A DNA stretch of 63,992 nt, filler included, from Sphacelaria rigidula (lineage: Eukaryota), in the NCBI GenBank assembly GCA_964200075.2. It is 3 parts of 3 records of this genome, joined end to end, with 100 filler letters (N's around TTAATTAATTAA, not from the genome) between each part and the next. Parts side by side here need not be neighbours in the genome. Positions count along the whole stretch, not along the records: positions 43,424 to 63,992 come from CAXNAA020000516.1; 2 more parts are not named here. The stretch is one strand, 5' to 3'. Shown here in pieces: positions 21,617-63,992 of this stretch (position 1 is the stretch's first letter; each line of letters opens with the position of its first letter). The position numbers and the translations under genes are program-made. The notes beneath the pieces are model-generated. The model saw only the letters and a program-made list of their open reading frames with translations. It searched no databases and was not told the origin of the DNA.

Positions 21617-21716
21617 NNNNNNNNNNNNNNNNNNNNNNNNNNNNNNNNNNNNNNNNNNNNTTAATTAATTAANNNNNNNNNNNNNNNNNNNNNNNNNNNN
21701 NNNNNNNNNNNNNNNN
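21617..21716. other. Assembly gap spacer (44 N + TTAATTAATTAA + 44 N)
   Basis: Fixed 100-bp N run containing a six-frame stop linker; artificial. Confidence 0.97.
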
Positions 21717-43323: not shown

Positions 43324-43423
43324 NNNNNNNNNNNNNNNNNNNNNNNNNNNNNNNNNNNNNNNNNNNNTTAATTAATTAANNNNNNNNNNNNNNNNNNNNN
43401 NNNNNNNNNNNNNNNNNNNNNNN
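43324..43423. other. Assembly gap spacer (44 N + TTAATTAATTAA + 44 N)
   Basis: Same artificial 100-bp spacer as at 21617. Confidence 0.97.
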
Positions 43424-43429
43424 CAACAA

Positions 43430-46400
43430 GTTCGTTACCGTCGGCTGCATACGCTTTCACCGCCGCTTGTGCCGCTTCGACTGAGGGATACGCAAAACTC
43501 ATGCCTCTAGCTCCGCCTCTCATCCCACAGCGTTGCGTGACTCAGTCGCCTTGTGAACATGGCCACATACATGTATAGTGGGGTACATTTATTCCCGCAT
43601 TTCCCACGAGCATGACATGTTCGTGCTATCAACTAGGATTTACTGTAGGATGGTGGCCCAAAACAAATTCGGGGGATGGGAGGTCGGACCTGCACAAAAT
43701 GCAAGTAAATGAAGAAAATTCGGGGATCCGGCCCCGGAGAATATAGGCTTTATTTGGCTTCGAAGGCCTTTCTGTGGGCCAGGGACAGGGTACGCCAACT
43801 TTGCAGTGACTATCACTCCCGGCAACAGCCCCCCCCCCACTGGTCGTTCTGATGTGGTCGATAAATTTCGCCTCGCCCTGATTGGACAGGTCGCTCCCAG
43901 ACTTGTTTACTATTATTTTACTAACACGTGAACCTGGTGTTCGTGAGCTTCAGTCCCATCGGGATTAAAACGGCGTGAGGTTTTGCCGATGAGTGTTTTT
44001 TGGGTGAGCAACGTGAACCAGCCTGTACGTATCGACATAAATGTTGTATCGATACTCGTATCGATATCGATACACGTTTATTTCTTTATTTTGCCAGGGG
44101 AGTGGTAGACAGCATATACATCGTCCCCCCTTTTTCGCATGCCTCCGCCCACCGCCAACCACCCCAGTGCCCACCACCTCACAACCCACCACACCCCACA
44201 TACAACACATACACATCATCCGCGCACTGCACACCCACTTGTTGCGAACCACACCGGTCTGCAACATGAGCCGCCTTCAGACTTTCGGCTCTGTCGCCGA
44301 CGGTAGCGCAGAGTCTGATGTCGACGTTTCTATCGTACAGTCTGTATCTGTGTCTGTTGTTGTTGTTGTTGTTGTTGTCTTCACATTAAAAGCCGTTCCG
44401 ATATCTGCGCGGTACATTGGTACTGGGCATCTTATGCGGACGCCTTCCGTGGTCACAGGCTAGCAGAAGAAACCAAAGGGTCTGCTACGGCGTTTGTCTG
44501 CTACTGAATACTCGTGATGAGTGCGTTTGCTGTGCGCAGTGCGCAGAGTCGAGGTAAATACTCTCATTCGATTGAAAAATGACGGAATGGTGGCCACGAA
44601 ATATACGTTTGTTCATCACCGGCTTGAACAACACACTTTGTATCACTCATCACACCTGGTGTTGTGATAAACTTTTGTACTTCCTTTTGCTTCTTGCCTC
44701 TTGCACGATGAAGAACAAATGGTACATGGTTGGGGAGAACCGGAGAAGAGAATATTGAGCTTTGGTATTTCACATACACAAAACATTGAAATGTCTTTAG
44801 TTTCGATCTGGCAGTGGGGGGTCACGCAGACAAAACGGAGTCGGTCACGCCACCAGTCGTGAGAGATGGGGGAGAGTGCAAGATCATGTTTTCATACGAC
44901 TACACTCTGCACCAGGCGCTGGTTGTACTGAGGCAAACTGAAAGTGTGCCCAGATCATCATGGTTGAGGTGGTCATGCGGTAGTGACCAGCTGGACCTGT
45001 TTTCATTATTCTCACAGGGCGCACACATGAAACTCGGAGGTGTACCTGGGTGGACACTTAGTTTTTCCCGATATCGAACGATATCCCCTTCGCATTTGGT
45101 GTTTCCCCAGATTCTTTTTCTCACCGTCGGCAGTATATACTGCAAGACATCTCCTCCTCCTCCGCCAGGTGGGTCCTTTAGCGGAACCGCAATCTCTCCT
45201 CGTGTCTTCCGAAAGAACTTTACTGTCTGTACGCATACGCCGTTCTGGGCAAGCTGTTACCGCAAATCATGCACAGGAGTTCTGACCTAACGTGTGAATG
45301 GGCTGCCAGAGATGATTCCTGACTCTGGGCGAGAATATGGTGAAGCTCTATCATAGACCATATCGATCCTCCATCCGGCCCTGGCGCGGCCGTCCGGAGC
45401 GCCGGGCCGGAGGAAGCTAAGGGATTTGATCTACCTTGTAATGTATGGGAGGACCGCGTGCTTAAGGGACCGCATTGAAGTTGAGACATCCTTACGTATA
45501 GTTAGGGTGAGGGTTAGAGTTAGAGTTCGCGTTATGGTCAGGAGCGCGGTCCTTGTAAGGACTGGCCCGATTGGTTTTGAAAAACGTCGATCCTGGGGTG
45601 TTTTCAACTACGACGCGGTCCCCTAAGCACGCGGTCCTCCGACGTATTACATACTCTCTTCTCCCTGTGTGTGGGGAATATGCGGTGATGAGCAACGCGA
45701 AATCCTTTTCGACATTACAGTTCCAGTATATTGGTGTCAACGGTGCAACATCATATGTATGACATAATACCTGTAGGGCAAGACCGACGTGTGTAAGTGC
45801 TGCAGGAGACATGTGCAGGTGACAGATACTGTACAGGAAGCAGAAGCAATTACTTGCTATACGGGGTCAATCGAACATACACGATGTCAACGGATAAACG
45901 GACCCACCCCAGATGTTAGCAGTTTTTAGAGGGTTGACCGCAACCTCAGCCCGTCGTTTCATCACACCGATTACGCAGGTTATGCGATTTATACCCACCT
46001 GAACCTCCGGGGACTTTCGTTGCCACTTGAACGAGGCGCTCGCGAGGCAGCTCCAGCTACCTCGAGCTCTTCTCGCTGCGAGGGAGACGCAATCCCTCTC
46101 AACCAGGACGAGATGCGATAGACCATGCTCCCATAACCGTGAAAGTCTAGCACGCCGTCTAACACCAGCACAGTGCGGGCCAGCGCTAGTATGAAAAAAG
46201 TGATGCCGATATCTCCGATGACTTTTCCCATCTCCTTGCCTTGTGAGCGTAGAACGTCTTGTTTTTTCTTGGGATGATGGCGAAAAGGTTGATGAGACGG
46301 GCTACAGGGGCCGCGGAAAGGCTTCAACAGTGATACAAAGAGGAAGGGTGTACTACGGTTATGCGTCCATACACGTCTCACGTGGTGTCTGATGATACTG

Positions 46401-47806: not shown

Positions 47807-48450
47807 ATGCGTGTTGGGACCGCGTGCTTTTTGGACAGTATCGGAATTTGAATATTCCAGGACCGACGTGTGGGGAGGAGCCCACGGACCTCATGAACGC
47901 AGGGAACGCGCCCCGAGCAAAGCTGTGTTCAGGAGGCGAACAGTCTGCCCGCTGAACCACTTAGCGCTCACAATATCAGTGGGTAAAATGCTTGCTCATT
48001 GGTTCAATGGGCAAATTGTTTATTCAATGATCCAATGCGTAAGCTGTTTGCTCACATGGTTCAGTCGATAAACCGTTCGCTTCCTGAACCAACTGCAAAG
48101 CATATTATGCGGTACGAGTCACGATGGGATCGCTTGTGGAAGGAAATTTTCGATTTTTTTACCTGTGAATAGTGGGGCTTTACGAGGGACAGGTAGCTCC
48201 GGAGATTAGTGAGTAACATGTCGGGACGGACCCCCTGCATATCTTTCGTTTAGGAAGCGAACGGTTTACACATTGAAGAAGTGAGCGCTCGCTGGTTCAA
48301 TGGGTGAGCCGTTCACTTCCTGCACACAGGCTTGCTCCGGGACGATCCCTGCAGTCATGAGATCCGTGCGCTCCCCCCGACACGTCGATCCTGGTGTGTT
48401 GAAATTCCGATGGGGTCCTAAAAGCACGCGGGCATAACACACGCATCACA
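47807..48450. mobile_element. Larger relative of the TGT...ACA MITE family with about 160-bp TIRs
   Basis: 47807-47970 is the diverged reverse complement of 48283-48446. It shares the ATGCGTG..CCGCGTGCTT and ACGTCGATCCTGG motifs with the small MITEs. Right end ATCACA. Confidence 0.75.
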
Positions 48451-48628
48451 AAAGTAGTAGCTGTTTTGTTCCGGATTTTCCGATTTTTTCGGGGAAAAAA
48501 CTTCCTCCCTGAAAAATGTGACAGCAGATTCCTCAATCAGGTAGGAATGTATAAGCAATGAAAACTGCTGCATTTTTTCTCTAAAAATCTAGTTTGTTTT
48601 GGAGGCAGCAACATTTTCGTTTACTGTA

Positions 48629-48905
48629 CCCCTCTTGGGACCGGGCCTGCAGAACGACCAATGAGGCTGGTTAGGAATGACCTGTCTGGCGTCTGAACGA
48701 AACAGTGGCGTGTTGCTGAAACCCCGCGTAGTATGTAACGGCAGGTTTATGAGGAAGATCGAAAGTTTCATCTAATCTATTTTGAGGTGCAGGGTGTGCA
48801 TTAGGCAATGTACATGTGATGTAGCAAGCAGTATGGATCGCGGTTGATTGAAGAGAGCTTTCAACAGGATGCGGCGACCGGCGGGCCGCCCGCCATTTGT
48901 GGCTT
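48629..48905 (-). mobile_element. Right-end fragment of the piggyBac-like family
   Basis: Begins CCCTCTTGGGACCGGGCC; reverse complement matches about 2195-2453. Confidence 0.8.
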
Positions 48906-49266
48906 GCATAGGGTGAGGGGGTAGAACACAGATAAGGGCCATCAATCCAGGATCCCCTGCCCCCTACCACTGCTCCAATCATGCATGCAATTATACTGAA
49001 ACCTACGGCTTGGTGTGACTTGGCGACAAGGTGTACCCCACTGTACTGTACTATACTAGTGTATCTTCATGCCTACTCTTCTCGTCAATTAGTATGGGAT
49101 GAATCTGTGGGTGCACCATCCGCGCCTGGTGTATCCCCTCCGCCTGTACTCGTCTAAGTTGACCATACCGATTTTAGTTACTCTTGTTAGCTCAATCGTT
49201 TGGTGACTCAGTTCATTCCTCTTTCGGGTACGGTCCTCGATGTTCTTATCGCACCTGCTGGTCTCT

Positions 49267-50735
49267 CTATGTGTACATGGGTTGTTTCCCGAAGGCTGGC
49301 CAAGACTTAATCTGTTCCTGTAATGGGAACTCGTTAATTTCTCTGCACTGAGCTTCTGAGACGCGTTCGATCATTCGGTTTTCGACTGTTCCGGGATCTA
49401 CCACTTCCATCAATCTCATGTATCTCCACGCCGTGCTCGGTCTTCTCCAGAAAGCCTTCTGCATTATCGTCTTCAAATCGTCGCCTGCCAAGGCACGGGA
49501 GACGGCGCCGCCCGAGCGAAACGAATGCATAGAGAACGGGCACTTTATTCCAGCATCCTTTCCTCGTTGTCTGAGGATCGCCGTCATCTGAGCGGCCGGC
49601 ATCGGTGTCGAACCTCGTTTCGGGGTTTTGTCGACGTGTCAATCTGGGGAAAGAGATAGCCTTGGGCCATATTCCAACCCATTGATGTCCCCACCTTCAC
49701 CCATTGCTCCACTGCTCGGACAGGGCATGTCGCGGGGTAGAGCTCATCGTACGGTACAGTGAGTAGATGGTCTGCGCCTCCTCGTAGTGTTTTCCCTCAT
49801 TGGAAGTTGAACATGAAACCACTGTGGTTGGGGAGTCTGAGAATGCGTTGGATGAGGGTCCTCGTGAGCTCGTCGCCGCGCTTACTGTTGCTAAATGCTA
49901 CTGTGAACAGGGCGATGTCTCGGGCCAGGAGTACCTGCTCCTTCGCGTCTCTAGTACATTGTAGAGCTGACCTCAATGGGGTGACCAATTCAAGGAGGTG
50001 GCTGTGTAGTAGAATCGGTGCTTGTTTTACTAGCACTCCAGCTTTCTTCTGTTCTTCTCTGGTGAACCTCGTATATTGTGCCACGAGGTTGCTGCGGACT
50101 GGGTTTCCTATCCGTAGTGCATCGCTCCAGTCGGAGTTCGTTCCGAGCTCGTTCTCGAAGGCCATCGCTAGTTTCGACGTATAATTCGTCCGTAAGGAAT
50201 CGTGTGCGTATCTATAGGTACATTCCCCTTGTTTCGTTGAGCAATCGATGAGTCCGGGGGTACCTCCTGCAGCGCAGTGTCTAGCATGTACTGGCGTACG
50301 TCCTTTCCCACATGCATCAAGCCAGCACAGAAAGGCTGCAACGTCGGTCGGTTGCGCTGCTGTCCAATATTTGGGGCCGGACCCGGGCCGTGAAGCTAAG
50401 AATCTAGTAAATAATTCTGTAGTAGAATCCTGTCTCTTTGCTGAGGCTGACGCTGCCATGGCTAGCGTAAACTGCATGTATCGTTTCTGTATAGCTTCCT
50501 CATCGATTTTTAATGTCGCCTCTTGCGTTACTCTCGTAGCTAGTATCGAACTCCTTATGCCGCACCATTGACAATATTGAAAGTCTTCGTCGTTCTTCCC
50601 ATGGCAGTCGGGGCATAGCACTCTCGCTCGCGAGGCGGAGACTCGAGTCATACTCGAGCTGTGGCTGGGCGGGTTGCGCTTGTGGCCTAGGTGGGCGAGC
50701 ATCGTTGTTATCCGTACTAGTAACGGTTGCACCAA
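49267..50735 (-). pseudogene. Zn-ribbon + ALOG DNA-binding domain + tyrosine recombinase
   Basis: CPDC-x10-CQWC; DVAAFLCWLDACGKGRTPVHARHC...C...C.YRYAHDSLR...GNPVRSNLVAQY...EEQKKAG; catalytic motifs KRGDEL, GKT, TCPVRAV, GYLFP, HSFRSGGA, W-x7-RY. Disrupted by TGA at 49797-49799 and a frameshift near 49600-49640. Confidence 0.9.
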
Positions 50736-50890
50736 AGCGAGAGCGCCTGGATGTGTTGGAATGGTCGCGCGATAAGAGCATTCGTCAGGTGGTTCTCGGA
50801 TACTTCTCGTGTGGTAATTGTCGTCTTAGAGGGTAGAGCATCTCTTGTGAAACTTTGCAATGAAGGGTCATGCCGAATATCATTCATTCA

Positions 50891-53209
50891 TCAGGCTTGG
50901 AACTCTACTTCAACTGCGTGCATTTCCCATTCATGAAATACGAACGCCTCCTGTCCTCGTTGATGGTGGGTACGAAAGCACTGCCTATTCTCCCCTTTTC
51001 TAGATACAAGCTTGGAAAGTACAACTGCTTCTGTGAGCATAGGGTACCACGACGCCGGTCTCGCTGGAACCACTACCATCGCACGGGCGTGGCAATCTGC
51101 GATGTGCTGAAGCACTACTCCGACCATCACCGGGGGCGGGAAACAAAACCCGAAGCATGGCTGCGTCCGATATGACGAGCGGCTAACGTCATAGCTAAGG
51201 ACGTCTACCCCGTGTGATCCTGCTGTATGATACCTCGAGTAAAAAGGCAGAGCTGTTCCTCCACCCGGTGCATTCATTGGAATCTTTTGGGCTGATGCTG
51301 TGGATGGCATGAGGTCCATGTCGAACCCACCCCACTCAAACCATAACTGGTCAAAATATTCTGCTCTCAGTCGCACGTGCTCGTTGGCCCCTGGTCTTGA
51401 GAGGCTGTCTGCCTCTGAGTTCGTCTTTGAGTCTACCCATCGTAACGTGAGTGTGAAGTCTGGTCTGATTTGCATCCAGAAGAGCTGTTGGATGAGGGTG
51501 TGCATGCGTTCATCCCTGGTCTTACTTTTCTTGAAGGCGTGGTACATGGTTTTGTTGTCGACATCTAGTGACTGACTAGTCACCGCCACTTGATCAGCTT
51601 GCTCTAAGCAGAACAGTCTAAGGGCCTCGTGCAGTGCGAACGTTTCCTTGACATTGATGTGTGCTGTCACCCATTCGGCGGGAAAATCGGCGGCCGCTGT
51701 AAAGGCGACGCCAGGGGGGCCTCGAACAATGCCCCCCCATGCAAGTGAGGAGGCATCTGTGGCGCCGTTTATGGCGATGATGTGGCGACCAGGGCTGTAC
51801 CAGGCCGCCCCATTCATGTTGTCTCGGAGTTTCCGCCATGTAGCTATCTCGTTTCGAATATCACCATTGACAGAGAGCGCTACCGTTGCTGTGATATGTT
51901 TTCCTCTCGTTTTTCTGTATATCGCGATCTGTTTGTACATGTGAAACGTGTACAAGCTGGCTGCTGGTACTGCAACTGGGATGCTTGTGCACTTCCCCGC
52001 CAGCTTCCCAAGCATGGTGAACGTGATGGTTCCGGTAGCAAGGGCGTCGTCCAAGATGCGCTTTAACTTGACGAGCTTATCTTCGGGGACTTCGAACCGG
52101 CAGTTGTCTGTGTCGAACAGAATTCCCAAGAACATAATTTTCGTAGTGGGTTTTAGCTGGCATTCCGAGATGGACATGAAGTATCCACAGTGATAGAAGA
52201 CTGACAGCGCCACGAGGGCTGCTGAGCTTGCTGCCTGTTTCTGCGTGTTAGATGGGTCATGTTTTGTCGAGCGGACTCCCGTCAGTCAGAAATTGTCGAT
52301 CCACGCCAGTACTGGTACATGTCGGGATCGTAGGTATTGTGCCACCGCCTCGCTCAGGGTGTGGTAGATGTAGGGGGAACTGCACCAACCAAAACAGAGG
52401 ACAGCCCAGACGTAATATTCGCCCTTCCACTGAACACCGAAGTATTCCCATGATGTGGGGTCGAGGGGCACATGGTGAAAACCTGATTTGTTGTCCATCG
52501 TAACCTGGTAAGCGCCTTGCCACGAGCATTGGGCCACCTTTCCTACTCCGTCCATCTTGAACGGCATATCCTTGCACATGAGGTTCAGCCAACGGCCGTC
52601 CCAGATTGATCGTGGTTTCGACGGTTCTACTCCGAGCGGGAGTGACGTGCGTGGCTAGGGTTGTGCGTGAACGTCAGCTATCTCCGCCCATCGCACCGCG
52701 CGGCCTTTATCGACAGGTTTTCTGATCTCGCAGTCGACAAACAGTTCGTGTTCTGGATTCACGTGGTTGGGTAACTCCACACCCGTGAGGTCGGCGCCGT
52801 GAAAGAGGCGTCCTTAGAAACTTCCTGTCGTTGATTTGTCGACGAATGTGTGTATGTCCACACCGTTAATCCACGACAATAACAAGTCGGGTTGCATGTG
52901 GTCCTTTAGAATGACCTCTTTCCAGAACGGGACTGCCGTGCTCAGATGTCCTGGAACAAAGTCTTTCTCGTTGTATATGGGGGCTTGTCCCGGGGCTTGG
53001 GGCGGTTCTCCTGATTCCCAGCCTTCCTGGATCTGGTTCGCAGAGGGATCCTGGATCATGCACTCGCTATGGGCTGAAGCTCGATTCCCTTGTATATCCG
53101 TTTGGTCCGTACAAAAATATGTATGCACCGCGTTCGTACGTCTGGATCTTTCTGCCAGAAACGCTATCAGGCCTGGTTGGTCCTGTAGACGCGTATAGCA
53201 AACAATCAA
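50891..53209 (-). pseudogene. pol: reverse transcriptase + RNase H + Dam-like methyltransferase domain
   Basis: One frame with stops at 52814, 52655 and 52286. RT motifs KPRSIWDGRWLN, DNKSGFHHV, LCFGWCSSP, WIDNF, FLGILFD; RNase H motifs TDAS, HINVKE, VDN, ADSLSR; methylase-like DMDLM..FYSRY..DVL..FCFPPP..VVVP. Confidence 0.92.
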
Positions 53210-54022
53210 ATAAAAAATCGTTGGACGGACGTGTCGTGTATGTATAGATATTTTGGACCCACAGAAATTTCACTGTTTTTTTTTTCCAAAGCGAGCGCTT
53301 CCACGTATCCCACTGCGCACCAGAGTCCAAGCCACGAGTGAAAGCGAGGTTCAAAGGGTTGCAGGCGGGGCATTGGGGCTGCGTTATATCGGATGATGAC
53401 GTTTTCAGATCATCCGGCATTCATTTCATCTTGAGGGTGAACATGACACTTTGGGGTCAACTGTAGTGGACTGGGTTACCGCGGCTTAGTATTCTTTCAA
53501 GTACACATAGGATACAGAGGGTTTAAGAAAGCTGCGCGGGTTGTGGTGTTTCGAGAGGATGGTTTGCAATGTTCGTGTGTTGCGGGGAAAAGTAAAACTC
53601 TCGCTCGGGTATTCTGCAATACAGCGGTGGGTTCGGCCTGTCGCCGAATCGGGCTCCATCATGTGTCGCGTGGTACAAATAACCCGAGCCGAACTCGCCA
53701 TCGGGGCAACAGAGCAGCAAACAGTATTCAATTCATGTGTATTCTATCTCTTGAAAACGGTACGCAAGATATGTCTTGCCTATTAACCTATGAAACAGGA
53801 CATGTGCAGGCTGGAGTCGGCACGTTCCTAGTGTCCTGTGGGGGAAGCTACCACAACCAGGGTGGGGTAACCCTGTACCATCTTAACAAATCAGACTTCA
53901 ATTCTACCATATCATCCGGGGCAGTGCTTAGCGAGGTGTCCGTGTTTTGCGCATTGCCAACAGGCTATCAGCGGGCAGTGAACATATGAATGGTTGGCGG
54001 GTTGACCCGCGTCCGTGCATTT

Positions 54023-54676
54023 TTAGTATTGGGGTGGTGCTCCTGAGCCCCGGCCACTGCCTCTCCCGGGACCCCCTCGGCCTCCTCCTCTACCGCCGAC
54101 CCGAGTATTTCGTTGTCGCCTCCCTCCCCGCCTCCCCGCCGCGTAAGGTTCACTGGGGCTGTAGTGGTTGGCGGCGCCAGAAAATGGCGCCTGCTGGTAG
54201 GGCAGGCGTGGATGAATGGGGGGCGGCTGTACATGGTAAAGTGAGGGTTATTGGGTCGGCGGGCTTAGCAGAGCCCTCGACCCCCCGCCCGCACGAATGT
54301 CTGGGCACCAACCCGGGGCGGTCTCCAGGGCATTGTGCTTGCCGCTCATGGACGTCGCGATCTCCTTGATCTCTGCCCGGAGGGCCTTCCTCGCGGCCGG
54401 CGAGCGCCGGGAGGAGGTGGCACCAAACCGTTTGTTGAAGAGCAGGGCAGTTAACGCCGGCGAGCGACGCGCGAGACTGTCCTCAACATCGTTGCGGAGG
54501 TTCCTCACCCACTCCGTCTCGCGACGGAGTGAGGGCTGCCCCTCGGCCAGCAGCTCCATCGCAGCTAGGTGGGCGAACATGGTGTCGAGTTGATCCGTGA
54601 CTCGCGTGAGGGGCGTGAAGCGTGGATCTTCAAGAGGGTGAGCGTCCGCTGCTGCTTGGCTCATCTTCAGCTCAAA
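54023..54676 (-). pseudogene. gag-like ORF, 3' part (putative exon 2), with RGG-rich tail
   Basis: The frame of ORF 54248..54664 continues past one TAA into PSLYHVQPPP...RVGGRGGGRGGPGRGSGRGSGAPPQY*. Preceded by acceptor-like acactgtag. Confidence 0.65.
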
Positions 54677-55009
54677 CTACAGTGTTGGGGATACAGCATG
54701 GGACGGGTCGGGCGAACGGGTCGTGCGGCTGTTGTTGTGCTGTCGGGCTCTCAGGCTGGATCGGTCTCGCTTTCACGTAGCAGATGTGATGGGCTGGTGT
54801 GCTCACAAACCGCGTGTACAAATGCTGAGTACTGCGCAGGAGCTGTGTCACACAGACTTGGTATGAAGGGGCTGACTGGACGGGTACGAAACACGTCTGA
54901 GCGGGCGGTATGGATGTTATGGGACCGTCAAGTATTGAGTCTGGGTTCAGCGTACTTCAGTTTCCAGGGTTTCTGGCATAACATAGGGCTCTGTGGTGCT
55001 GCGTGGGTA

Positions 55010-55960
55010 AAAGCGAGCGTGTGCTGTGCTTCGCGTCATTCCATGTGTACTGTTACGCTCCCACCTGTACAGTATGGGCGGCTAAGAACTGGGTTGGCGT
55101 GTGTTTGTGCCGGTCCCCGGTTGTACTCGACAGGCGGCTGAAAGCCAGGCGAGCTTGTGCAGTGCCGCGATTCGGTGGCACTGATACTGTGCTACGCTCC
55201 AAAGTGTACTGTATCGGCGGCGAAAGGACGAGCCGAGTGAGCGTGTACTATGTGGTAAGGACTGTACGGGCGTGTACGTCGCGTCATCCGCACGTATACT
55301 GTGCTAACGCCCCCACCTATGCTGTGTGGGCGTCGAACGACTGGGTGGACGTGTGCGTGTGCCGGTCCCACTCTGTACTCTACAGGCGGCTGAAAGCCAT
55401 AAGGACTTGTGCGGTGCCGCATCTCGTCGGCGCTTGTACTGTGCTGCGCTTCCCAGGGTACTGTACCAGCGGCAAAGGGCCGAGGCGGATGGGTGTGGAC
55501 TGTGCTAGAAATACTGTACGGGCGACGGGGTCGGGTAGGTATGAACTGTGCAGCATCCGAATCGATACTGTACTGGCCCGAATCTGTACTGGATGGGCGA
55601 CGACAAACTGGACGTGTACGGAGCCTCCCGAGCCTGCCGTGTACTCGTAATGGTGTACTCATCTGTGCTATCTGGGCTGCGCGTGTACGGTGCTATGTGT
55701 ACTGTACAGTCCATAAGGAGTCGGGCGGGCGTGAACTGTGTTTCACCGGAAGCGATACTGTACTGGCCCGAATCTGTACTGGGTGGGCGACGGCAAACTG
55801 GACGTGTACGGAGCCTCCCGAGCCTGCGGTGTACTCGTAATGGTGTACTCATCTGTGCTATCTGGGCTGCGCGTGTACGGTGCTATGTGTACTGTACAGT
55901 CCACAAGGGGTCGGGCGGGCGTGAACTGTGTTTCATCGGAAGCGATACTGTACTGGCCTA
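55010..55960. repeat. GTAC-rich tandem repeats inside the putative gag intron
   Basis: Two diverged units of about 250 bp (GCCGGTCC at 55109 and 55361), then near-identical 190-bp units starting at 55543, 55733 and 55923 (partial). Confidence 0.85.
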
Positions 55961-57080
55961 AATCGAGATTAGATGGGTGGCAGCAAGTCGAGTGGGCGTG
56001 TACGGTGCACCCCTCTGTGCATTTGTTTTGTTTGTTTGTTTGATTTGTTTTTTTTCTCTCTCGGGGCCGGGGGGGGGAAAGAGAACGAACCAACAGCGAT
56101 GTTGTCGCCAGCCGCGTTTTCAAGGCCGGCGCCTAAGTGCTGCGGTGTAGGCATCTGTACTGATAAGAGACACGGCGTGTGCTGACCGTAGCGCTCGTGC
56201 GCTGTGAAGGTCGCCGGTGGGGCTATTAGACATGTGGCGACGGACCGGGATCAATTACCGGGGAAGTACTGAGGTTAAGTACATGCTAATCAGCAATGTG
56301 AACGCCTCCCAGCGTATTACTAAGTGAGGTATGTCCAGGCAAAGAATATCGTGATCCGAAGGGGTTTCTCCGTGCGAGGGTCATGGAGAGCACGGGAGCT
56401 CCTGGGGCGGTATCGTGAGGAAGGAACGGTGCGTGCTCCGTCAATAGCTACTGGCTGGCAGTACAACCAAGGGGATGTATGAAACGGGTTACGGGTTGGT
56501 GGGTCTGTACGTGCGTGCGGAAAGAAAGGAGAGACCCGCTGTTGTAGGAACTGCGATCTGGCAACATGCGTGTGGGTGGTGAGTGTGCTGAGTACACGAC
56601 GTCGCGAGTGGAAGTGGGACGAGCACCCTGTAATATAGACGTGCTGGTGTGTTATCTCAGAGTTCCCATGTTTCCGTACAAAGTTTGGGCACCATGCTGC
56701 CTTGGGCTATCGGCTTGCGGTGTAGTTGTGCTGTGCGTACCACCTGTGCGGGTTTGCGGGAAGATATATGTGCGGCTACATAGATATCACAGTATCATAG
56801 TGTACATACTGTAATTTGGTGTGAAGTGTGCGGAGAAGTAGAGCTGCCCAAGTTTTCCAGTACAACTGTGTACTTCCTGACTGTAGTTTTGTGTGAGCTA
56901 GGCAGGGCAAATAGCTGCACCTATATTACAGTATAATAGTGTACTGACTCGAATTTGACGGGGCTGCTGTAGCTTATGAGTGTGGTTGGTTGCTGGACAG
57001 TGGGGCGCTATCCTACGGCTGGGAGGCCTCGAATGTACTGTACTGAGCGTGCGTGCCGGGAAGCAAATGGAGAATCTCAC

Positions 57081-57836
57081 CTGACGGCGGGGGTGAATCC
57101 GCGTAAGCAATCGCTCCTCGTCGCTGTCCTCCTCCTCCCCTGCCGAAGCGGCTCCGGCTGCACTCATGTCCGCCCTACCGTGTGTATTTTCTCCCGCGTC
57201 GGAGAGCTCCGGTCCAGCGAACTTTTGGCGCTTGGGTTGGGGGTCCGTCAGATCCACCGGGACATGGGAGGAGGAAGGTGGTCGAGGTGGCAGTGGAGGA
57301 GGGTTTTTTTGGGTTGCTGTGGTAGCGGTGCCGGAGATGGGGGGGAACGCGCCTGGGAAGACGAGGAAATCGCCCACTCTTTTCAACCCGCCGTGGGTAG
57401 TGCCATCGGCTGCCCACAAGTGGTCGACTGCTGCTTTGAGCAAGGCTCGGGGCTGGAGGTCCCCCCGATCGTCGGGGGGAACGCTGACTGCCATGGAGGG
57501 TTGTAAGATGGCTGCGATGTTGATTGACGTGCTTGTCGCGAAAATTTCCGCGCAGACGCACATGAGCTGGTTCATCGGGATCTCGTCCGCGGTGAGACCC
57601 ATCACCGCAATCACCCTCTTTGGGTTTATGGTGAAGACGGGCCCCTGCGTCTCGTAGACTAGCTCGTGCAGAGCGTCTACGGAGAGTATCGCCTCCGGGG
57701 TGGACATGTCCAGCGTGTCGGGGACCATAGGTGGTACGTGATTGGACTGTTGTAGGAGTTTGTAGGTATAGTGTGCGAGAGGAGGGGCCGAGCCCACGTG
57801 CAGCGGGGCGAGCCTTCGTCGTCGGAGCTGTCTCAA
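57081..57836 (-). CDS. gag-like ORF, 5' part (putative exon 1); first ATG at 57728
   Basis: Globular N-terminal region, then Pro-rich, PKRQK and acidic segments. Ends at CAG|GTGAGA. Lies upstream of pol on the same strand. Confidence 0.55.
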
Positions 57837-57989
57837 ATCGGTTCCTGCTTCCCGTGCTGTTTCTCGGTGATCAGGGATCGACGATCAATAAGTAACTGGT
57901 TACGTGTGGTGCTCATATATCACTCTTACTTGGCAGTCCCGTGTCATAACGCCTGCGGCTATATGTAGAACTTCCTGTCAAATGATCCT

Positions 57990-58510
57990 GTATGTATGCG
58001 CGCCGCAAGGCTAATACCCTTGGAAGAGAATTTGCCGCATGCAACAAAGAGGAAAATGGCGACCCACCCTGACCACATAGGACTGTGTGGTAAGGTGATG
58101 GGTGTGATGCGTGAGAGGACCGCGTGCTTAGAGGACCGCGTCGGGAGTTGAACATCCCTTTGATTGGGGTTCGGATTAGGGTTAGTGTTGGGGTTGGGGT
58201 CAGGGATGTGGTCCTCGCAGGGGCTGGCCCGTTGGGTTTGGAAAACTTCGATCCTGAGGTGTTTGGAGCTACGGTGCGGTCGCCCTCTAAGCACTCGGTC
58301 CTCTCACGCATGACAATCGGGACAATAATATCATCCAAAGCCACAAGCGCCGGGCGGCCCGCCGGTCGCCGCATCCTGTTGAAAGCTCCCTACCGCGACC
58401 CATACTGGTTGCAACATCAGATGTACATTGCCAAATGCGCACCCTGCACCTCAAAATAGGTTGGATAAAACTTTCGATCTTCCTCATAACCCTGCGGTTA
58501 CATACGCGGG
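57990..58510 (+). mobile_element. Internal fragment of the piggyBac-like family, interrupted by a MITE
   Basis: Aligns with about 2065-2360 (TTTGCCGCATGCAACAAAG, AAAGCCACAAG, CGCGACCCATACTG, TCATAACCCTGCG). Confidence 0.8.
58103..58315. mobile_element. TGT...ACA MITE (213 bp) with 5-bp target-site duplication
   Basis: TIR TGTGATGCGTGAGAGGACCGCGTGCTTAGAGG. Flanks ATGGG and ATCGG; the empty paralogous site near 2170 has a single ATCGG. Confidence 0.85.
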
Positions 58511-59133
58511 TATAGTACAGTACAATCGAGTACGCTTTGTCGCCAAATGACACCAAGCCATAGGTTTCAGTATAATCGCATGCATGATTGGAGCAGTGGC
58601 AGGGGACAGGAAATCCTGGATTGATTGCCCTTATCCGTGTGCCCCCTTGCTATCTGGCGCGTGATGTGATCTGTTGAGGATCACTCCGTGATAATAACAA
58701 GTGGGAAGAAAGGACTTGTCGAGCACGAGGCCAGTGCTACTGGGGGAGTCTCTCGTTGATAGCCCTCTTGTCCAGATCGTCTGGCAGAGGCTACAATATC
58801 TAGATATTATTATTTGCGGCACGGTGTTGGAGGAGCTTGGCTAGGGAGAGGGGCCGTAGCTGGAAGCAAGCGTGGCCTGCAGTCGGGGAGACCAACTTGA
58901 AGCCAACTTGAGGCGCACAGCATGCAGTGGAGGGCGCTCCGTGGGCTGGAGGACGCAAAGTAAGGCAAGAGTCTCTCCGTGAAGTGGTAAATCCTAGACG
59001 ACATGGCTCAAGAGGCGGCAGTACTGCTGGTGTTGGGTGAGCCACTAGAACCGCCAAAGTATGGCGAAGTCTGGACTGAAGAAGCGTCAAAAGTTTCTTT
59101 GCCAAATATTTCGATTATTTAGAGAGGTTTCAT

Positions 59134-61560
59134 TTGGCCAATGCAACAGGAGTCATAAGGCATGCCAGGGTGAGCATCGGACAACCTCTTCCAACATATA
59201 CTCACAGGAGCTTTGAAGGCAAGAACAAGGACCGTCAGACTATGACCCCCGACGAGTTGGTAGATGCTGTGAAGCAGCATGCCGGGTACACCACAGCCGG
59301 CGGCAAGTATGACACTGCGCGGGCTGCAGCAGACGTACGTAGAGTTCTTACTATACCACAAAGCGGTGGAACATCCGTGAAGGATCGTGCGATGATGGTC
59401 AATTCATCGATGGAAACGTTTTTAGCAGAAACCCTCACGGTGCAAGCCATGTACGTGCGGAGGACAGGAGCTGGTTGCCAGGCCCGACTGAGTCGGTTTC
59501 CACAGCTGTTGTAGACGAGATTTCGCCTCCGGAATTCAAGAGCAATGCTACGGTAGGGGTGCACTTTTTTCGCGAAGTTATGTCTAGTTCAGGGGCTCCT
59601 AACGATTCAAGATGCACAAGAATATGGATCAGGACATCCCCGTTTGCAATTTCATTCGGGAGATCCCCAACACACATCGGAGTAGTAATCATCCTGGCGT
59701 ACTTCCACATATTTTCATACGTCGCGTCTTGGATGAGGTAAAGGGGGCTCCTAACAATTCTAACCTCAGAAAATATTTGTGCACCCCTACCGTAGCATCA
59801 CTCTCAAGGCGTATGTTAGAAGTGTACTAACGTATGTTAATGGCTGGAAAAAGAACCCGACGATGGTGTTCAACAAAATATTTGATGCCGCCGTTCAGTG
59901 GAAGTTTATTGAGGCACATGGCCGGCGCGATTCTGCGGCAAGTTCAGGTAGTGCGTGCCGCAAACAGCAACAGCAACAGAAACAGCAGTCGTTTTCGCGA
60001 GCGTCGTCCATTCGCGCGGGTTACAACTGCAGCGACACCGGATAGCGATTTAAGGATTGCCCCAAGCCTCGCGCTCAAGGCGCTGCTCAAGGAAATGCGC
60101 GAGATTCATCAGGATCTCGATGCGGTCGTCACGGTGGACGGGGCCATGCCAACCAGGGACTCGGGCGCAGCGGCCGCGGTAGCAACCAATCGACGGCGGA
60201 TTGTGGTTCCTTCGCTGCTGTTGCTTCCACTAAGTCATCAGGTGGTGACTCTGGATCTTATGGCTCGTCCGTGTCGGGGCGAACAGTGCACGTAGAAATG
60301 CAAATACTTCTGCGGGGAGTGCTGGAGCGAATAGTTCGCAACCTCTCGGCCAGGCAAGATCCGTGTCTGGTGCATCTCCTACTGCTGCGACTGCTGTAAC
60401 AGCGCCGTCTGCGTATTCGTCGATTGGTCTGGTTGGACCGACGATCCTCAGTTTCGACGTCAAGTGCTGGAGGGCAGCCCTGGCGCTAGATGACTCTTGG
60501 TACCGATCAGGGTTCTTCGGCAGGCGTGGTACCTATCGATCGCAAGGCTGAATTCTTACGCGCAGATCTCTCCTTGCCTGGTTCCGTAGGTTCGTTCATG
60601 GCCCGCGTTATTCTGGATTCTGGGTCCGCGCTCACGTCGATCGGTGTGGGGTTGCCAGAACGAATTTCTTCGCAGTTCGGCGGTGCTCAGCTTCAGATTC
60701 CGTTTAAAAACGGACCGCAAACGGTGAAGACCGCCATGGGTGCTCCCGTGACGGCTACACATAAAACGATGTCGATTACTGTTAGCGTGCGTACGCCGTG
60801 GGGGGCTGTGGAGTTGCGGTCCAACACTTTCGCTGTCATGCCAGGTAGGGACAACGTGGTTCTATTCGGGATGGCGACAATGAAGGAGCTCGGGATTGAT
60901 TTGTACCCGCTGGTGTTGGATACGTCACGCCCGCGTGCTGTGCCGGTGCAAACCGGCGTGGAAAATCCCAGCCATCTTGCTGCAAGGCGTGTGACCGTAT
61001 CCGTACGGTCATTTCAGAGCGCCAATGAGGAGGAGGCTCTTGCGGATAAAGCGGTGGAGCGCTTGGTCGATCGGGGTCCGACATGTTCATGGACTCTGCG
61101 AAGGAGAGAGGTGCAAGAGAGCGTGCACTTGAGGATAGCGTGCAGTAGGCCGAGCAGAAGGGCCTGAGCGCCGATCGCGCCTATCGTCTACGTGATATTT
61201 TGGCTCGTCGCATGGATACATTTTGTCGTGCACTGCGTGGTGATCCGCCAGCGCGCGTAGAGCCCATGAGGGTGCACCTTAAGCCACAGGCAAGGGCGAT
61301 GAAGGCCAAGCCCAGACGTTACGATCCGGTGAAGATCGGGTGGCTTGCCTCATACATCGCAGCTTTGATGGCGTTTGGTTTAGTGGTGAGGAACATCCAG
61401 GCTGTGTGGACGAGTTAGGCGATGGCGGTGCCGAAGAGGGACACATTCCGTCTGGTCAGCGACTATCAGGCGGTGAACGCGCAAGTGTAACAGTCTCCGG
61501 AGGTGATGCAAAGCCAAGAAGACATGCGGGAGTTGCTGGGAGCCCAACGCTTCGGCAAGT
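59134..61560 (+). mobile_element. Degenerate, 3'-truncated Ty3/Gypsy LTR retrotransposon (gag remnant, aspartic protease, start of RT)
   Basis: Protease motif ILDSGSALTSI...VLFG in 60490..61167. RT N-terminus PMRVHLKP..KAKPRRYDP..W.S*AMAVPK..FRLVSDYQAVN, with stops and frameshifts. No LTR pair seen. Confidence 0.85.
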
Positions 61561-63992
61561 TGGAAAGGCCCAATTGCTTGCTCGGCCTAAGGGCCAATAG
61601 TTTAAAAAGGGTCCTGAAACCGAGAGCACTCCGTTGTTGTCTCATTTCCCCAGTACAAAAATGTATATTATACTCTCCACATAAAATGTAAAACCCCACT
61701 TGTGCACTGCCAAAAGGGGGGGGGTCAGCCTTGGAAAAGTCGCTCATACAAAATAACACGTCATGATAACCCTATTTCTTCGCCACGCGACAAAGTGTGT
61801 GCCACCCTGCAGATATATACTGCAACCATCTTATGAGGTTACCTTGAATAAGAGAACTGTATATATTATTCGCCTTTCCCTCATATTGTCATGATCCAGC
61901 GTCACTATCCATTTCCCTTGCACCCAGGCATGTGTACATGTATCTATCCTTGAGTGTGAGTATATTCGATTAGCCCTCCTACTCACGGCTCAACTCTACT
62001 TAAGTCTCAAGTGTCATATTCTCATATTCGATTAGCCCTCCTTCCCACGTCTCTATTCTCTCAGGGGGAACCGGAGAGTTATCCGTGTGGAAAATAAAAA
62101 AATGGCGGTGGTGGTGGTAGTGATCCCTTGTCATTCCACGGGCCAAACCCTTGCACTTTTTCAAATCAAGTGTCCTTCACGCTAGAAACCACCTCATTGC
62201 GCATCTTTAGGCTGTATACGAATCCCCACGAAGTTTCAGGTCATTTCGTTCTCCCTGGGTTGAGTTTGATCCATGGCTGCTGATGCGTCTGTGCCCGCTG
62301 CCCGGCGCTGCACGGACGATGGGTCGGAGAGATGTAACACACGCGCACAAAAACTTTGGAATAGTAGATATCTGTCAATACGGCAGCAAAATAAACGAAT
62401 GGCATATCAAATTAAAGATCTCCTTTATCACAAATACACCCACACGTGTGTTTCTGTCACCGTTTCCTGTGCGTTCAGAAATTGTGGCCTATCGTCCCAG
62501 GGGTTGCGCTAAGTGCATTTCGTATACTCCCTCGAACCTCTTTTTCAGAATTCCAGGAAACTTCCGAATCTGTATTTATCCAACAAAATGGGGTGTTTGC
62601 GTGGATGAAACTCGGGTTTGGTCCTGAAGTTCAGAGCAAAATGCAACTGTCACCCGACTTCGGTTAAACAACTAGCTTTTAAAGACCCCACCGACTATGG
62701 TGATGTGAAGACCAGATTTGGGTGCTGGGCCTGGTTGGGCTCGGTCTTTCCTATTGGCCAACAATCTCAAGTCCGCTCGATCTTTACCGGTACGGTGTTT
62801 TGGGAAGCACATTTGCCCACAAAGTCCGCAGCAAAGGGACCGTTGTGATCTCCACTCGGTTTGGTCTTTTAAATGTTCATGCTATTGGTCGGCAGACCCG
62901 ACGGGTTTTCCGTCCTGTGACGGTTTAACCCTTGGACCGCGAGGTTAGTGTTCTGTTGAATCGGCATCAATTTCAAGTGAAAAAAAATATGCATGATCCA
63001 GGAAGACTAATCTCGCGGACTAAGGGTTAAGAGATAACCAACTAGACTACTGACCAGTCAGTCCTCCCGGCATATGCCACACCAGCTCTATCAACGCGCG
63101 TAGGGCGTACACCACACCATACGCCGAAGACGGTTGGTGTGACATTGGTGTTCACATGGAGTCAGCACAGCAGCATATGCACAAAGAAAGAGTGTTGAGC
63201 ACAACTTGACACAGACAGCGAGTAACACGAACAACATGAGACAAACGTGACGTGTATCCGGCGTGATGGAAGCATGCGATACAGCAGGACAAGTTTTTCG
63301 GCTCACCTCCCACAGATAAGACTGAGTCGAGGTGGCTTGAAAGATTTTCGCGCAAACCGCGATTATGGCCAGGCGTTTGAAAATCGGCCATCGGCAAAAA
63401 TTCAGGACCCATCTGAAATAAGTTGAAGACCTATCACATTGGACATGTGGTGTTTCATCGTGCTGCAGCACAAACATACTCGCGCTCTCTCTCATGTGCT
63501 GTAGCTGTCATTTGCGCTGTGGTGTGTTCGGGCCTTTGCGAAGACGGTTTGATCTCCGCTGGGACTGCGTCAGTTGCCTTCCTGTTGTCACTGCATTGGT
63601 CTTTACAGAAAATGAACGAAATTATGTTTTTCGGCAGGCAGTGCTGTATATGGGTACCTAGGATTACGTTCAGAGCTCTAGGCGCACGACTGACAAGAAC
63701 CGGGCTCACGAGAGCGAAGCGGGGCAACTCGAACTACTCTGAAAACAGTACACTTTAAGCAACCCTTCACCTCCACGTAACCTTACAAGTTGGGACGTTT
63801 TGAAAACGCTAGGGGTGCTCTACAAAGTTTTTCCATCACAGCACGGTGTTCAGGCACGCGAAACGTCGGTGTACAAGCATAGTTACCACTAACCAAAGTA
63901 TGTGTTCGCTTTGGCCATCGTAAAGGGGCATCACCACAGTCTCTGACATGTGGCATCAGCAATGGTTGTTTCAAACATCAAAATATGGCATG

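Follow-up and report, generated by a model that had tools for sequence, protein, structure and literature searches.

The window analysed here is a stretch of 63,992 nucleotides of joined sequence from Sphacelaria rigidula (assembly GCA_964200075.2), and all coordinates are positions along that whole joined stretch. On its minus strand, from about 58640 to about 48630, stop-to-stop open reading frames (ORFs) and Pfam matches delineate a retroelement of ~10 kb in which an orphan ORF, a second ORF, a reverse transcriptase (RT), a 464-codon ORF and a recombinase gene follow one another. This ORF and Pfam order, together with inverted and permuted end repeats, leads us to class it as an ALOG-type DIRS1-like retroposon, a class described from Ectocarpus. 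The first two ORFs are read here as the two exons of gag, and the 2404-nt segment that separates them (54677–57080, minus strand) is very probably a spliceosomal intron that is kept by copies of this S. rigidula family.

The putative gag exons and the segment between them

The junctions of the segment were read directly from the minus strand. At the donor (57081/57080) the upstream ORF runs CGC CGT CAG and then GTGAGATTCT, and at the acceptor (54677/54676) tccccaacactgTAG is followed by TTT GAG CTG AAG ATG AGC. The putative intron would accordingly open with GTGAGA (57080–57075) and close with TAG (54679–54677), with a pyrimidine-rich tract, cccgtcccatgctgtatccccaacactgtag, ahead of exon 2, the latter judged by eye. 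Both junctions fall between codons (phase 0) and the exons join in frame, just as a first-pass annotation of this DNA had claimed; the joined frame has 358 codons from the ATG to the first stop. When the upstream frame is instead read on past the donor, it meets a stop after 60 codons of the segment.

That annotation had also described the segment as rich in tandem repeats and devoid of a credible ORF, and both points stand. Its three sense frames contain 17, 21 and 19 stops, the longest open stretch being 166 codons, and none of its eight ORFs (94 to 221 aa) gave a Pfam match at E ≤ 0.1. Tandem Repeats Finder identified two arrays, one of 252 bp ×1.9 at 55055–55524 and one of 190 bp ×2.1 at 55559–55958, or 55527–55986 when bounded more widely, and 36% of the segment is tandem repeat. 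We considered and rejected a nested element, since no terminal inverted repeat (TIR) or target site duplication (TSD) occurs at the segment ends (54677 and 57080), no ORF within it has a Pfam match and its contig depth shows no excess over the flanks. A structured RNA was likewise set aside, as the folding z-scores (+0.68, +0.93, +1.42) were no better than those of shuffled sequences and Rfam returned no match at the gathering score over 48000–59000. A separate observation concerns short motifs: the segment is rich in GTAC and GTACAG on the sense strand, with 20 GTAC per kb versus 3–5 per kb elsewhere, and GTACAGTA occurs 25 times in the window (1.5 expected), nine times in the segment and on the sense strand in eight of these. 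The same GTACAGTA adjoins the 3′ end of the element (48622–48629), and a (CTGTA)n run at 2040–2059 adjoins a short repeat unit at 2063–2456; the motif may be a target or binding motif.

The coding part of gag exon 1 (gagA; 57081–57728, minus strand) extends over 216 codons from the ATG at 57728 to the CAG at the donor, within a stop-to-stop ORF at 56898–57884. It specifies an orphan protein domain, for which no Pfam family was found, and then a Pro-rich and acidic tail. Exon 2 (gagB; 53915–54676, minus strand) lies in a single frame and encodes a helical region, then Pro-rich and Gly/Arg-rich regions and finally a CCHC zinc knuckle, the zf-CCHC match (E 0.0038) being below the cutoff. Its ORF to the first stop comprises 142 codons (54248–54676), and frame-0 translation places in-frame stops of this copy at 54250–54248 and 54025–54023 and the final stop at about 53917–53915. 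A distant relative, the Logan protein P0004, aligns to exon 2 over residues 5–235 and has the same order of parts, without the stops.

The predicted join is present in a deposited protein. P0002 (CAM9623036.1; NCBI, S. rigidula, 358 aa), which is encoded on another contig, of 9098 nt, opens at the same Met as exon 1 and reads RIYPRRQFELKMSQAAAD, with PRRQFELKMSQ at the expected join. In tblastn, its residues 1–214 map to 57728–57081 at 70% identity and residues 215–358 to 54676–54245, so that the two peptides are contiguous and colinear with both ORFs in this homolog, a check that the first-pass annotation had proposed. Because no residue is missing at the join, the small internal exons that the annotation had left open are excluded for the P0002 form. 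Moreover, P0002 is 71% identical to exon 1 and 85% identical to exon 2, which shows that a copy can diverge this far with neither half closed and with the phase between them kept. GT and AG at the ends of two ORFs are cheap by chance; the exact colinear join in P0002, judged on the sequence, is not. The Atlas structure for P0002 is of low quality (pLDDT, predicted local distance difference test score, 0.39), and the neighbours found with it belong to unrelated bacterial families below the threshold.

A second deposited model, P0001 (CAM9171281.1), lies at this very locus, to which it is 100% identical, and joins the same 57080 donor to another acceptor, at 53198, which consists of an unusually T-rich tract and CAG just ahead of the start of pol. 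The second acceptor is a hint of alternative splicing, the product of which would be an in-frame leader–Pol fusion. In the S. rigidula annotation, exons and introns derive solely from alignments of proteins or of assembled transcripts from the same strain, combined by Gmove (10.1101/2024.02.19.579948, section 38). An exhaustive search of 1.84 billion representatives returned only four proteins like P0002, namely the two deposited models and two fragments. Since this Gag has no relatives outside the species beyond two fragments, a protein-guided intron is unlikely, and transcript evidence likely stands behind the annotated introns. Protein searches found no joined forms other than P0001 and P0002, the 'shorter' search over residues 150–290 gave 44 candidates and no matches, and no relative turned up in two metagenome scans, one made with P0002 and one with the pol ORF.

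We then asked how the segment fares in other copies, using Logan contigs of four sequencing runs (X1, X3 and X4, which are DNA-like, and X6) aligned to 48500–58800 at 80% likeness. X6 is RNA only by guess, no run being recorded as RNA and four being assigned to RNA by guess. All seven bins of the segment were covered in each of the three DNA-like runs, and contigs over the segment differed from the window by 4–16% in the four runs; among the contigs listed, those 84–86% identical (records 6, 7, 15, 22 and 23) fall inside it. At position 56411, within the segment, the distinct contigs with a difference from the window number 8, 6 and 6 in X1, X4 and X3 respectively, similar to the 8, 7 and 6 found at the exon position 57177. 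The copies also vary in the segment itself, with a 59-nt variant (56520>56580) in all three DNA-like runs and a variant in repeat number. In the DNA-like runs, summed contig depth over the segment resembled that over its flanks, which argues that the segment is not a high-copy nested repeat. In X6, contig 30 (54599–55151, 28 differences) bridges the acceptor unspliced and contig 31 (56445–57132, 29 differences) bridges the donor unspliced; together they indicate that a non-identical copy holds the segment at the same two places. Judged from these contigs, then, the segment is a feature of the multi-copy family that this copy shares with others, and the earlier suggestion that an intron was gained here alone is rejected.

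In X6, summed contig depth was 0.9–30 in the seven segment bins versus 93–313 in four flanking exon bins, a measure that cannot rank gene parts; the depth steps fall within 20 nt of the donor and of the acceptor, and we regard the drop as a weak hint of splicing. Contig 29 of the same run (53154–53901) runs unspliced across the 53198 acceptor.

The host element and the state of this copy

The proposal of the first-pass annotation that the host is an ALOG-DIRS element agrees with the domain matches. Downstream of gag, a non-coding spacer (53198–53914, minus strand), with no long ORF in any frame, ends in the T-rich tract and CAG mentioned above. It is followed by pol (50891–53197, minus strand), which comprises an N-terminal part, the RT, an in-frame stop (52288–52286) and the 464-codon ORF. 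The RVT_1 match at 52286–52654 (E 9.1e-8) scored 32.5 bits versus a cutoff of 29.6, and an RNase H-like RVT_3 match in the 464-codon ORF was weak (E 0.012, 16 bits versus a cutoff of 21.6). About 170 residues after the latter have no family match; in the 464-aa product, no PDB sequence matched at E ≤ 1, and neither a Pfam family nor a PDB match at that threshold pointed to a methyltransferase-like domain. The recombinase gene (49267–50825, minus strand) encodes a zinc ribbon, an ALOG domain and the putative catalytic part of a tyrosine recombinase, and is split over two frames in this copy. ALOG_dom was detected above its cutoff (E 1.1e-7, 32.6 bits versus 26.6), the zinc-ribbon-like DUF7577 (26.8 bits versus 28) and DUF7575 fell just under theirs, and the Phage_integrase match was weak (E 0.0027, 17.9 bits versus 27.1). 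An HSFR…Y stretch in the ORF at 49267–49638 resembles what we take to be the H-x-x-R and Tyr boxes of tyrosine recombinases.

A search for inverted repeats and self-blastn resolved the 5′ terminal repeat region (57989–58640, minus strand) into three blocks, 58502–58640, 58338–58505 and 57989–58102, the first two of which are inverted copies of 48926–49064 and 48731–48905. The 3′ terminal repeat region (48627–49064, minus strand) carries the 5′-end blocks inverted and in permuted order. The extreme 5′ block recurs inverted just inside the 3′ block (48731–49064 versus 58338–58640), and this layout resembles the internal complementary region of DIRS-1, unlike the direct repeats of the Ectocarpus relative. 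The 3′ repeat ends at about 48630, after which GTACAGTA follows, and loose ends occur at 48630 in X1 and X3. Summed contig depth over the terminal-repeat blocks (48500–49187 and 57788–58800) is ~100 times that of the internal part, which suggests very many solo or non-autonomous derivatives; the element ends given here are provisional. The short unit at 2063–2456 is made of the same blocks, standing alone.

An insert of 213 bp at 58103–58315, with 32-nt TIRs that are 94% complementary, interrupts the 5′ terminal repeat and looks like a miniature inverted-repeat transposable element. It is missing from other copies (joint 58100>58319 in X1, X4 and X3), and a 74% identical copy lies at 45437–45651.

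Relative to most other copies, the window has small indels at 53260, 53275, 53405 and 53506 and a one-base difference at 49627, and these account for the disrupted frames of pol and of the recombinase gene. As stops also interrupt gag and RT, the window copy is a dead pseudogene, and the mechanism proposed below therefore describes the family, not this locus.

Elsewhere in the window, the plus strand at 60490–61600 holds an ORF with a DSG motif (ILDSGSALTSIG) and then further ORFs, which together look like an aspartic-protease-like fragment of a different retroelement. Four runs of 44 N, in two pairs (21617–21716 and 43324–43423), are filler between the joined parts.

A splicing model for Gag and the alternatives

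The join in P0002, the reuse of its donor in P0001, an annotation built on alignments alone and the presence of the segment in diverged copies all support the original call of a spliceosomal intron in gag. We consider it likely that the family as a whole carries a U2-type GT–AG intron of phase 0 in gag, and that its spliced RNA makes Gag and its unspliced RNA serves as template. Transcripts would begin in the 5′ terminal repeat, and splicing, which we infer to make the join in vivo, would connect the 216-codon gagA to the exon for the helical, Gly/Arg-rich and CCHC-knuckle part. Unspliced RNA, in which the frame meets a stop after 60 codons of the segment, could not encode full Gag, which would come from spliced RNA only. 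Because copies keep the intron, the RNA copied by reverse transcription would have to be the unspliced one. Labour would thereby be divided between a spliced messenger and an unspliced template, and splicing would, in this model, set the supply of Gag.

Several observations weigh against this model. The splice joint 57080>54677 was not among the 15 joints listed of 222. The joined form at the locus of P0002 may reflect RNA evidence or an intron-less DNA, and both P0002 and the window copy have premature stops relative to P0004, so that either may be non-functional. Exon 2 carries its own ATG, five codons in, and P0004 is an ORF whose starting Met lies near its gagB-like part and which continues through the Gly/Arg-rich part to the zinc knuckle; gagB could thus be translated alone. 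On such grounds one might posit two genes and a long non-coding spacer that holds the tandem repeats, with gagA as an extra 5′ ORF, the gagB-knuckle protein as the true Gag made from its own ATG, and the P0002 join as a rare or incidental splice, or a path of the annotation, with no role in the life cycle. Homology of P0003 begins at the exon-2 boundary, as this would lead one to expect, and the Ectocarpus ALOG-DIRS element is described, in the accessible text, with 'multiple overlapping fast-diverging ORFs' at its 5′ end and with no intron reported (PMC3537659). Curated Ectocarpus PAT-like DIRS families are similarly listed with 'four ORFs' and no introns, and some DIRS have internal tandem repeats. 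We nonetheless hold the two-gene explanation to be improbable, given the exact phase-0 GT–AG join in a deposited protein from an evidence-driven annotation, the reuse of the same donor at this locus, and the fact that copies whose exon 1 differs by ~30% keep both halves open and in phase.

Less probable again is that the segment arose in one subfamily by insertion or by expansion of repeats, that the ancestral gag was contiguous as at the locus of P0002, and that GT…AG is coincidental. The tandem-repeat content, the 59-nt and repeat-number variants and the degenerate state of the window copy would fit such an origin, and P0002 is known from its protein, not from the DNA of its locus. However, copies only 84–86% identical carry the segment, with numbers of variants similar to those in the exons, and the segment has no TIR, TSD or coding capacity. 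At both ends the likeness to splice signals extends past GT and AG, to GTGAG at the donor and to a pyrimidine-rich tract with YAG at the acceptor; its donor is used by P0001 as well, and an insertion would need to have landed exactly between two codons. Gain of the intron in this single copy, for which nothing speaks except its mention in the first-pass annotation, is scarcely credible when contigs 4–16% different cover the segment in four runs and non-identical contigs bridge both of its ends.

The family-wide intron may be extended, more speculatively, to a splicing programme like that of retroviruses. One donor (57080), ending a shared leader exon, would feed two phase-0 acceptors, 54677 giving Gag with the zinc knuckle and 53198 giving a leader–Pol fusion; only unspliced RNA would carry the 2.4-kb motif-rich segment and be kept for reverse transcription, with its GTACAG repeats either marking and selecting the template RNA or acting as landing sites for new copies. 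We regard this fuller scheme as doubtful, if worth entertaining; were it true, the 'fast-diverging 5′ ORFs' of the Ectocarpus ALOG-DIRS would be recast as an exon and an intron.

How DIRS elements replicate is still poorly understood, and intron-keeping elements reveal how messenger RNA is told apart from template RNA. If the family does splice for Gag yet transmits the unspliced form, the intron would be a natural marker of which RNA is copied, and the long 'ORF-poor' 5′ regions in annotations of brown-alga DIRS might be introns as well. The practical effect would be modest, in that curation pipelines for transposable elements (TEs) relying on the longest ORF only would mis-annotate such gag genes.

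Comparison with known retroelements

The closest known relative is the ALOG DIRS1-like retroposon of Ectocarpus (Iyer and Aravind, 2012; PMC3537659). It shares with the Sphacelaria element a brown-alga host, a length of about 9–10 kb, a Gag with zinc knuckle, an RT, a recombinase gene with zinc ribbon and ALOG domain, and a long, fast-diverging 5′ part (PMC3537659). Its RNase H and recombinase catalytic domain have putative counterparts in the weak matches seen here. The same text gives it terminal direct repeats of 159 bp, unlike the inverted, permuted termini seen here, and a methylase-like domain, which we did not detect in the Sphacelaria element (PMC3537659). Unlike that description, the 5′ part of the Sphacelaria element reads as one exon and a 2.4-kb intron. 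The literature searched, which excludes the subscription DIRS papers of Goodwin and Poulter, yielded no description of a DIRS-type element with a natural intron, nor of a retrovirus-like splicing programme for any DIRS element. The word 'intron' does not occur in the accessible text of an overview of DIRS1-like elements (PMC3266345) or in that of the ALOG-DIRS paper (PMC3537659). The curated Ectocarpus TE notes list no introns for DIRS.

In retroviruses, one major 5′ donor is used, the packaging signal lies downstream of it, only in the unspliced genomic RNA, and Gag is made from that unspliced RNA. The Sphacelaria family may resemble them in using the alternative acceptors 54677 and 53198. 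It differs in that full Gag would come from spliced RNA. A packaging role for the segment is hypothetical, and its predicted folding is no better than that of shuffled sequences.

Elements copied through RNA are expected to lose introns, and the few keepers, such as Ogre and Penelope-like elements (PLEs), are treated as oddities. The Ogre intron was reportedly described in legumes by Steinbauerova et al. in 2008. Genomic copies of Ogre, a Ty3/gypsy element of legumes, keep an intron that splicing removes to join coding parts, which implies an unspliced template and a spliced messenger, as proposed here (PMC3735527, in the part available). Ogre differs in being a long terminal repeat (LTR) element with integrase, whose intron lies between ORFs further downstream, not in gag, and in belonging to another order and another host kingdom. 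PLEs also keep introns through retrotransposition, which is called 'highly unusual among retroelements', but their reverse transcription is target-primed and relies on a GIY-YIG nuclease, their small conserved intron lies in the 5′ untranslated region over an internal promoter, and they have no gag (PMC8557442). In Pfam searches the Sphacelaria element has an ALOG domain and a weak recombinase match and neither the LTR-plus-integrase arrangement of Ogre nor the GIY-YIG and telomerase-like RT domains of PLEs. It would thus work like Ogre and PLEs but is a member of neither.

In copia and BARE1, too, splicing of the element's own transcript sets the proteins made and the unspliced pool is copied; there, Gag is already encoded by the unspliced RNA, and it is pol that splicing takes out or disables (PMC3735527). 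In the Sphacelaria element, by contrast, the unspliced RNA could not encode full Gag. By this comparison its design appears closest to that of Ogre and the reverse of that of copia and BARE1.

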